Shown piece by piece: positions 2-227 of a DNA stretch of 227 bases. Origin of the DNA: Escherichia coli (GTDB taxonomy: Bacteria; Pseudomonadota; Gammaproteobacteria; Enterobacterales; Enterobacteriaceae); the NCBI RefSeq assembly GCF_003334355.1, contig NZ_QOWP01000119.1; one strand, 5' to 3'. Made by a program: the position numbers and the translations under genes. Position 1 is the stretch's first letter. Every line of letters starts with the position of its first letter. Under the pieces are notes generated by a model. It saw only the letters and a list, made by a program, of their open reading frames with translations. It did no database searches and was not told where the DNA came from.

Positions 2-77
2 TGGCGTCCCCTAGGGGATTCGAACCCCTGTTACCGCCGTGAAAGGGCGGTGTCCTGGGCCTCTAGACGAAGGGGAC
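2..77 (-). tRNA. gltU: tRNA-Glu (anticodon UUC), 76 nt, CCA encoded; spacer tRNA of an rrn operon
   Basis: Reverse complement of 2-77 reads GTCCCCTTCGTCTAGAGGCCCAGGACACCGCCCTTTCACGGCGGTAACAGGGGTTCGAATCCCCTAGGGGACGCCA. It folds as a canonical cloverleaf: 7-bp acceptor stem GUCCCCU/AGGGGAC, D stem GUCU/GGAC, anticodon stem CCGCC/GGCGG with loop CUUUCAC, 4-nt variable loop, T stem AGGGG/CCCCU with loop UUCGAAU, discriminator G and 3' CCA (plus 2-4 = tgg). The anticodon UUC is plus 41-43 (gaa). I recognise this as the E. coli tRNA-Glu sequence. The symbol is tentative: the E. coli K-12 copies gltT, gltU, gltV and gltW are identical in sequence. gltU (rrnG) is chosen only because the gene is on the minus strand, which fits K-12 orientation; in another genome or orientation it may be a different copy or carry no symbol. 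Confidence 0.97.
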
Positions 78-227
78 ACGAAAATTGCTTATCACGCGTT
101 GCGTGATATTTTCGTGTAGGGTGAGCTTTCATTAATAGAAAGCGAACGGCCTTATTCTCTTCAGCCTCACTCCCAACGCGTAAACGCCTTGCTATTCACT
201 TTTCATCAGACAATCTGTGTGAGCACT
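78..227 (-). other. 16S-23S rRNA intergenic transcribed spacer, 16S-to-tRNA-Glu segment (partial; 16S end lies beyond the window)
   Basis: The reverse complement begins AGTGCTCACACAGATTGTCTGATGAAAAGTG... and runs directly into the tRNA-Glu 5' end. I recognise this as the conserved sequence found shortly downstream of the 16S 3' end in Glu-type rrn spacers of E. coli and relatives. There is no credible ORF. Recognition is from recalled sequence, not a search, so exact species and operon copy are not established. Confidence 0.8.

Follow-up and report, generated by a model that had tools for sequence, protein, structure and literature searches.

We examined a stretch of 227 nucleotides (nt) of Escherichia coli DNA (assembly GCF_003334355.1, contig NZ_QOWP01000119.1; the whole stretch is hereafter the window), whose minus strand carries a tRNA-Glu(UUC) gene and, immediately upstream of it, a nested hairpin. 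Judged by sequence comparison, this fold is a real, selected RNA structure that is tied to the 5' end of the tRNA and is old. It is the tRNA-proximal domain of an autonomous two-domain 5' leader, made of an upstream domain (P1) and the nested hairpin (106 nt in E. coli), and the leader accompanies tRNA-Glu genes in the rRNA operon (rrn) spacers of Enterobacterales and in Alteromonas-type tRNA-Ala/tRNA-Glu arrays beside gltX. A covarying tRNA-Glu leader fold common to both contexts is undescribed as far as the searched sources show, and a literature search for a described tRNA-Glu leader hairpin returned nothing.

The nested hairpin and its covariation

The transcript corresponds to the minus strand, on which ARAGORN placed the tRNA-Glu(UUC) gene at positions 2-77. 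The Rfam tRNA model aligned from window position 77 (60.1 bits), and tRNA nucleotides 1 and 2 (G1 and U2) are window positions 77 and 76, both able to join the leader helix. The window is identical over its 227 bases to positions 2729368-2729594 of E. coli K-12 MG1655 (NC_000913.3), which comprise the rrsG-gltW spacer and gltW of rrnG; in a locus of 100% identity (L001), the end of the 16S gene is followed by 21 nt and then by the start of the window. The features, all on the minus strand, were the following:

108-117, minus: 5' arm of the outer helix, ACACGAAAAU, whose first two nucleotides are AC (117-116); inverted repeat and RNAfold.
91-107, minus: inner hairpin, AUCACGC (107-101), loop AAC (100-98), GCGUGAU (97-91); inverted repeat and RNAfold.
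86-90, minus: A-rich bulge AAGCA, 5 nt, on the 3' side between the inner and outer helices; RNAfold.
76-85, minus: 3' arm of the outer helix, AUUUUCGUGU; 78-85 are leader positions -1 to -8, and 76-77 are U2 and G1; inverted repeat and RNAfold.
2-77, minus: tRNA-Glu(UUC) gene, gltW in rrnG of MG1655; ARAGORN, Rfam tRNA model and identity to MG1655.
117-175, minus: predicted upstream domain P1; leader-only RNAfold and window centroid.
Within P1, minus: predicted helix of 167-175 with 117-124, enclosing hairpin a (163-166/148-151) and hairpin b (138-143/125-130).
78-183, minus: optional leader block of 106 nt; comparison of long and short spacers and population counts.

A repeat finder recovered 76-85/108-117 as a perfect 10-nt inverted repeat (100% complementary) and 90-97/101-108 as a perfect 8-nt inverted repeat, which contains the 7-base-pair (bp) version 91-97/101-107. 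The preliminary description, made from the letters of the window, had drawn a 10-bp helix at 76-85/108-117 around a 7-bp stem at 91-97/101-107, with a loop at 98-100 and a bulge at 86-90, and every one of these coordinates holds in the repeat finder and RNAfold. Folded by RNAfold, the 42-nt transcript adopted the nested hairpin as both its minimum free energy (MFE) structure and its centroid (-16.6 kcal/mol, z = -5.26), none of 200 shuffles folded as well, and a 71-nt context gave the same nested hairpin, which confirms the minus-strand fold proposed at the outset. The A and U residues at 108, 90 and 85 permit either 10 + 7 bp or 9 + 8 bp, with a bulge of 5 nt either way. The outer helix abuts tRNA position +1 with zero linker: it reaches leader position -1, and its final two pairs use G1 and U2. 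The placement directly before +1, with the outer two pairs on G1 and U2, had also been proposed and agrees with ARAGORN and Rfam. When the full 227-nt window was folded, the MFE structure swapped the outer helix for other pairings and the centroid retained it.

Further copies of the fold were collected by a metagenome scan that returned 25 loci; its pattern left out the E. coli type and fixed only AC...AAA / TTT...GT beside the tRNA start. In alignment A2 (43 distinct sequences, 18 pairs), 96.5% of the cells were paired, and 15 of the 18 pairs had changes on both sides (7 of 10 in the outer helix and 8 of 8 in the inner helix). None of 500 shuffles reached the observed values, and sliding the partners by 1-3 columns left 29-49% pairing. 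Chance is excluded, mainly because the conservation comes with compensatory changes. Fourteen copies had not been selected by the pattern, namely five from Enterobacterales and bystander copies in arrays. Of these 14, 12 were paired at 10 of 10 pairs, with four pair types at -1 and four at -2 in the set; U2 was pairable in all 14 (13 A-U, 1 G.U), as was G1 (13 C-G, 1 U.G).

In Enterobacterales, a scan of one genome per species with the pattern 16S 3' end, 156-186 nt, tRNA-Glu 5' end returned six loci. Four Enterobacterales species among these loci had homologous long spacers with compensatory differences in both helices, and RNAalifold reported double changes in both. The helices, compared with those of the window, were:

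E. coli: outer ACACGAAAAU / AUUUUCGUGU; inner AUCACGC / GCGUGAU.
Cedecea colo: outer ACACAAAAAU / AUUUUUGUGU; inner AUCACCC / GGGUGAU.
Limnobaculum eriocheiris: outer ACCCGAAAUU / AAUUUCGGGU; inner AUCGAACC / GGUUCGAU.
Tatumella morbirosei (both operons fetched): outer ACGUGAAAUU / AAUUUCACGU; inner GCGAAUCA / UGAUUCGC.
Pantoea stewartii: outer ACGUGAAAU / AUUUCACGU; inner short and different.

The compensatory changes that the preliminary description had suggested looking for were therefore found by RNAalifold, in 15 of the 18 pairs of A2 and in the 14 unselected copies.

We also built a covariance model (R1) from 38 metagenome sequences, none of them from Enterobacterales, using an alignment (A5) anchored on 7 tRNA nucleotides. 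R1 matched positions 71-126 (minus strand) of the E. coli window with 44.5 bits (E about 1e-12), and the spacers of Limnobaculum, Cedecea, Tatumella and Pantoea with 55, 47, 46.9 and 22.4 bits, respectively. It gave no match on the short-allele spacers of E. coli (which have the same tRNA start and are described below), on Avibacterium or on one of the metagenome loci (L013). Across 203 kb of metagenome loci, all 46 matches above 50 bits adjoined a tRNA-Glu gene. The traits of the family are all present in the window: an AU-rich outer helix of 8-10 bp, an inner helix of 7-9 bp, a loop of 3-4 nt, an A-rich bulge of 4-7 nt on the 3' side, and a helix that runs, with no linker, right up to -1 of a tRNA-Glu(UUC) gene. 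The place and A-richness of the bulge are conserved across copies, and its sequence is variable. The non-Watson-Crick cells comprised 23 G.U/U.G and 8 A.C/C.A, and R1 scored 53-77 bits in the sense orientation against 14-24 bits for the antisense of the same sites. The excess of G.U and the difference between sense and antisense scores favour an RNA structure in the tRNA-sense transcript.

We compared the leader with catalogued elements. In Rfam 15, with E values up to 10, tRNA was the only family that passed in the window and the leader had no match; at the gathering threshold, five related loci gave tRNA, rRNA and StyR-44 only, again with no leader match. The spacer boxA/boxB elements and StyR-44 (RF01830) resemble the leader in being conserved structured elements of the 16S-23S spacer, but boxA (1000-1012 in L001) and StyR-44 (575-707 in L011) lie downstream of the tRNA and neither is in the window. 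The StyR-44 match in L011, the Cedecea spacer, stands between tRNA-Glu and 23S (75.7 bits) and is a separate, already catalogued element. An antitermination signal of the rrn boxB-boxA type was rejected, as no boxA (TGCTCTTTAACAA) was found in the window at up to 3 mismatches. An internal promoter is likewise unsupported: a scan for sigma-70-like promoters found no site in the window or in one Alteromonas-type array.

The tRNA-Glu body itself contains several G4/C4 tracts (window 6-28 and 71-82) that are repeated or mutually complementary; according to the repeat finder, AGGGGA occurs twice and UCCCCU is able to pair with either. Alternative conformers of E. coli tRNA-Glu are known, and the G4/C4 tracts are consistent with them.

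A two-domain leader within and outside rRNA operons

In the predicted structure, the whole 106-nt block consists of P1 and the nested hairpin, and no linkers separate P1, the outer helix and the acceptor stem where these meet. The P1 helix is a prediction that was tested less rigorously than the nested hairpin; its hairpin b covaries among Enterobacterales. At the junction, the AC of the outer 5' arm (117-116) has two possible partners, either U2 and G1 of the tRNA or the upstream GU of P1, and in leader-only folds AC paired with the P1-closing GU in 33 of the 43 sequences. The preliminary description had proposed that the outer helix competes with the acceptor stem. This part stands for the E. 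coli ensemble, in which G1 paired with leader nucleotide C-39 at p = 0.84 and with C72 at 0.09, but the competition is not conserved: in addition to the 33 of 43 sequences with AC on P1, group-B relatives had an acceptor stem at p = 0.98 and AC paired with P1. A perfect 8-nt complementarity was also seen between window positions 94-101 and 174-181 (ACGCGUUG / CAACGCGU in the transcript), through which the start of the block would pair with the inner hairpin, at its loop and 3' strand; such a match is near chance expectation for 227 nt, and no equivalent was seen by eye in the Cedecea spacer.

The 25 metagenome loci are not rRNA operons. They consist of a tRNA-Val(UAC) array, a gene, a tRNA-Ala(GGC) gene and then 1-4 tRNA-Glu genes; the intervening gene is gltX, one copy of which is the exact Alteromonas macleodii GluRS. 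Nested hairpins flush with +1 preceded 46 of the approximately 50 tRNA-Glu genes in these loci, and every Glu-Glu spacer (143-228 nt) terminates in one. One such copy reads UUAC-UGAAAAUC-UCGAAAGC-GUUG-GCUUUCGA-AAGAA-GAUUUUCA, followed directly by the GU of the tRNA. The specificity for rRNA operons implied by the preliminary description was thus not upheld, as the element also stands before tRNA-Glu in these Ala-Glu arrays. Before the first tRNA-Glu gene after tRNA-Ala, the hairpin is sometimes degenerate (25 bits) or absent; such sites are 2425-2481 in L025, 14456-14511 in L028, 3009-3065 in L023 and 5035-5091 in L013, the last being the sole locus with a 47-nt Ala-Glu spacer and lacking the element. 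Thus not every tRNA-Glu gene has the element, even within arrays. The Val-Val spacers of the same loci are only 27-37 nt long.

The loci behind the synteny of Val array, gltX and Ala(GGC), with Glu copies in the Alteromonas-type contigs, were L015, L017, L021, L025, L027, L029, L030, L036 and L037 (all as whole loci) and L039. The Glu-Glu spacers (L033 250-1350, and those of L025, L019 and L015) contain more conserved hairpins upstream of P1, such as GUCACAGU...ACUGUGA, and a second stem-loop, and a strong terminator of the bidirectional type (L033 264-291) closes the array. The gltX neighbourhood of E. coli K-12 retains the Val array, gltX and Ala(GGC) and comprises valUXY-lysV, gltX, yfeCD and alaW-alaX, with no Glu genes; a vestige of the leader was sought downstream of alaW-alaX at this locus and none was found. 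In E. coli, tRNA-Glu genes are confined to rrn operons (PMC4696680).

Long and short spacer alleles in E. coli

When the window was searched by BLAST in 5,426 complete genomes of E. coli, only about half of them gave the part upstream of the tRNA. The spacer from 16S to tRNA-Glu has two alleles, a long one of 171 nt and a short one of 85 nt; in the latter, 20 nt (CTTGCGAAGCAGACTGATAC) take the place of window positions 78-183 (106 nt) and there is no hairpin. In MG1655, rrnB and rrnG have the long allele and rrnC and rrnE the short one, and all four give the same tRNA. The 106-nt block was found at 4,008 places in 2,791 of the 5,426 genomes (median 1 per genome), with at least 99% identity in 2,775, and the short junction at 17,606 places in 5,369 genomes; together they account for about all of the 21,632 tRNA-Glu places. 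The long allele thus represents approximately 18.5% of E. coli Glu spacers. Since 49% of the genomes make all their tRNA-Glu without the hairpin, it is not required for maturation, and the hairpin is dispensable for making tRNA-Glu in E. coli. The preliminary description had regarded the structure as a plausible determinant of 5' maturation in the 30S pre-rRNA; as a required determinant the structure fails, by the condition for refutation that the description itself had set, given its absence from 81% of Glu spacers and 49% of genomes and given that rrnC and rrnE make the same tRNA.

One genome (NZ_CP010170.1, strain H6) had 7 copies of the 106-nt block (e.g. 89958-90063) against the median of 1, and about 57 E. 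coli genomes had no short-allele junction at all; either all operons in these genomes are long, including those of non-Glu types, or these are artefacts of assembly or polishing. A scan of viral contigs for an unbiased sample of tRNA-Glu genes gave a single, uninformative match, an E. coli short-allele rrn fragment. This match (L038, IMGVR_UViG_651053022_000007), filed as viral, joins the last 14 nt of 16S to unrelated sequence and then to a short-allele Glu spacer, has tRNA-Ile and tRNA-Ala elsewhere, and looks like a chimeric or misclassified rrn fragment of the E. coli type.

The 106-nt block is probably the known 'rsl' spacer polymorphism. Its replacement of 20 nt by 106 nt and its heterogeneity among operons match the 'rsl' (ribosomal spacer loop) as reportedly described by Harvey and colleagues in 1988. 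In that work rsl is said to be a polymorphism, of sequence or seen in heteroduplexes, that recombination spread from operon to operon. Like rsl, the block sits between 16S and tRNA-Glu, puts 106 nt in place of the 20 nt of other operons, and is found in rrnB and rrnG but not in rrnC and rrnE, and the heterogeneity is seen both between operons within a strain and from strain to strain. Unlike rsl as it is reportedly described, the block is a covarying RNA fold common to non-rrn tRNA-Glu genes of another order. As a sequence, the E. coli block is itself an old, known polymorphism. The study (Harvey, Hill, Squires & Squires 1988, J Bacteriol 170:1235) is listed as reference 50 of PMC4696680, and our searches of the literature for rsl or ribosomal spacer loop returned nothing relevant.

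Putative masking of the RNase P site and rival explanations

The C5 protein of RNase P contacts leader nucleotides N-8 to N-3, P RNA reads N-1 and N-2, and pairing of the leader is an anti-determinant (PMC5602109); E. coli RNase P is blocked, in vitro as well as in vivo, by an engineered hairpin that uses the leader immediately before the tRNA as its 3' strand (PMC7897497). This biochemistry predicts that a helix over -1 to -8 hinders RNase P, and the element would then be an anti-determinant or gate and not a positive determinant; by analogy, masking is the likelier role of the two. In the thermodynamic model, the mean probability of being unpaired over leader positions -8 to -1 was 0.09 for the long and 0.71 for the short E. 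coli allele, and -1 to about -7 were held in a helix, as in a sequestor. We tentatively propose, with a little less than even confidence, that the element may be a natural mask of leader positions -1 to -8 that slows or gates 5' maturation by RNase P.

After transcription, the AU-rich outer helix would pair -1 to -8, and in E. coli also G1 and U2, with the upstream A-rich arm. The masked stretch would be the one that RNase P must hold single-stranded, N-1 and N-2 by P RNA and N-3 to N-8 by C5. Being weak and AU-rich, the outer helix would stay meltable, and the stable inner hairpin would nucleate it; after cleavage, the leader would keep a fully paired, recessed 3' end. The element would modulate maturation and be non-essential, because the short-allele tRNA-Glu has an open leader. 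One of the closest known systems is an RNase P riboswitch engineered with a 'sequestor hairpin' (Ender et al. 2021, NAR, PMC7897497), in which the 3' strand likewise masks the leader upstream of +1; that device is synthetic, contains a theophylline aptamer and is switched by its ligand, whereas for the natural element we found neither a ligand nor an alternative fold that is conserved. Pairing between the leader and the 3'-RCCA (Niland et al. 2017, RNA, PMC5602109) also involves the proximal leader nucleotides and lowers kcat/Km, and there C5 needs N-8 to N-3; in that case the leader pairs with the 3' end of the tRNA, and selection acts against such pairing in E. coli leaders, whereas here it pairs with an arm of the leader further upstream and selection favours the pairing.

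Several points weigh against this proposal and the comparative evidence beneath it. Some substrates with structured leaders, such as pre-4.5S RNA, are processed by RNase P. The effect on RNase P is inferred by analogy and from a thermodynamic model that ignores the tertiary structure of the tRNA and co-transcriptional folding, and there is no evident reason why slower maturation would be selected so persistently. We found no conserved ligand, protein or alternative fold to open the mask: the alternative in which P1 is extended, present in E. coli and some Alteromonas copies, lacks covariation and is absent in group B. The dispensability of the element in E. coli is just as compatible with an effect that is weak or even neutral. 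As to the alignments, the metagenome set was retrieved with AC, AAA, TTT and GT fixed, which leaves the other positions and the 14 unselected copies as the independent evidence, and many metagenome copies are paralogues within one array.

Within the masking proposal, it is rather doubtful that the element is a conserved RNase P gate, which would make the maturation of some pre-tRNA-Glu conditional on temperature, on a helicase or other protein, or on completed folding of the tRNA. Two specific devices were considered and rejected. A conformational switch, in which the P1 extension takes the outer 5' arm and frees the leader, appears in the 227-nt MFE structure of E. coli and in some Alteromonas copies; it was dropped as the main model because it is absent in group B and its upstream strand did not follow the changes of the outer arm. 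A T-box-like 'GAA' specifier for the Glu codon occurs in the bulge of some copies only and is absent in E. coli, Cedecea, Limnobaculum, Tatumella and others.

As the main rival, the leader could also be a folding insulator or a structured spacer that is merely tolerated, with no specific effect on RNase P; we regard this as unlikely, though deserving serious consideration. A self-folded leader would avoid mispairing with the G4/C4-rich, misfolding-prone tRNA-Glu or with identical neighbouring copies, and would deny Rho and RNase E single-stranded entry. The several mutually complementary CCCC/GGGG tracts of tRNA-Glu fit such a role, as do the fully structured Glu-Glu spacers of 143-228 nt against the Val-Val spacers of 27-37 nt in the same loci, the conservation of pairing alone without that of loop and bulge sequences, and the dispensability of the element in E. 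coli. An insulator would have no need to end exactly at -1, yet no copy has even one nucleotide between the helix and +1, and the helix spans precisely the footprint of RNase P; moreover, the long spacer is left unexplained when 20 nt suffice in the short allele. Another endonuclease might instead use the leader: RNase E (or G) would cut at the boundary between bulge and U-run, leaving a short free leader for RNase P, or RNase III would cut the stacked helices, and we consider either quite unlikely. RNase E prefers RN/WUU (the slash marking the cut), which the boundary fits, with AA/UUU in E. coli and GA/UUU or AG/UUU in relatives; in all copies a single-stranded A-rich bulge lies directly 5' of a conserved U-run, and RNase E cleavage in a tRNA 5' leader reportedly has a precedent in the 2005 work of Soderbom and colleagues (reference 76 of PMC9514646). 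The U-run is base-paired, however, whereas RNase E needs single-stranded RNA; our searches turned up no cleavage data, and the short-allele operons need no such step. An RNase III stem was rejected, since 10 + 7 bp broken by a 5-nt one-sided bulge fall below the approximately 20 bp of near-continuous duplex typical of its sites.

It is very unlikely that the function lies in the released leader, an RNA of about 100 nt whose blunt, fully paired 3' end would resist 3' exonucleases and which would accumulate and work in trans, by binding a protein or as a sponge or decoy. Folded alone, the leader is predicted to be compact, with its 3' end inside a helix, and spacer-derived regulatory RNAs exist in E. 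coli, such as 3'ETS-leuZ; a tRNA-Ile fragment derived from an rrn spacer is also described in this species (PMC9514646). Against a role in trans, there is no conserved single-stranded seed, the loops and bulge vary freely, and no such RNA was reported in the searched literature. Least probable, and kept as a minor rival, is an action on the antisense strand or at the DNA level, where the inner hairpin and the plus-strand TTTT would form an intrinsic terminator against antisense transcription entering the operon, or the palindrome would act as DNA. The antisense strand does fit the consensus of Rho-independent terminators of the bidirectional type (A-tract, GC-containing stem-loop, U-tract), with matches in E. 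coli (90-108 plus TTTTCGTGTA) and at three Alteromonas-type copies; L033 has such a match, and the same scan made no call on the sense strand. But the G.U pairs favour the sense strand by 23 to 8, the sense model scores 53-77 bits and the antisense 14-24, the covariation reaches the three pairs beside +1 that a terminator does not need, and the element repeats before every tRNA-Glu of an array, always flush with +1. Unlike Rho-independent terminators, the sense strand has a 5-nt bulge before the U-run, a tRNA gene at once and covarying pairs beyond the A/U tracts. A terminator on the sense strand was itself rejected: there is no minus-strand site, and the bulge parts the stem from the U-run by 5 nt, where 0-2 nt are expected.

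Bacterial tRNAs seldom have a conserved, structured 5' leader, and no catalogued one belongs to tRNA-Glu, for which Rfam lacks such a family. The element described here covers the RNase P footprint, has been kept by compensatory changes in two orders of Gammaproteobacteria, and precedes tRNA genes in rRNA operons as well as stand-alone ones. In E. coli its presence or absence varies naturally, both inside one genome and from strain to strain. If the element were a gate, E. coli would have two kinetic classes of tRNA-Glu genes, those of rrnB and rrnG and those of rrnC and rrnE, and the engineered RNase P riboswitch would gain its first counterpart in nature. Should the element modulate RNase P, the leaders of rrnG and rrnC and the rsl+ and rsl- strains would provide a ready-made system for leader control of maturation in vivo, and a spacer polymorphism known since the 1980s would acquire a function. 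If it has no effect, it would still be a clean case of selection maintaining a structured spacer.

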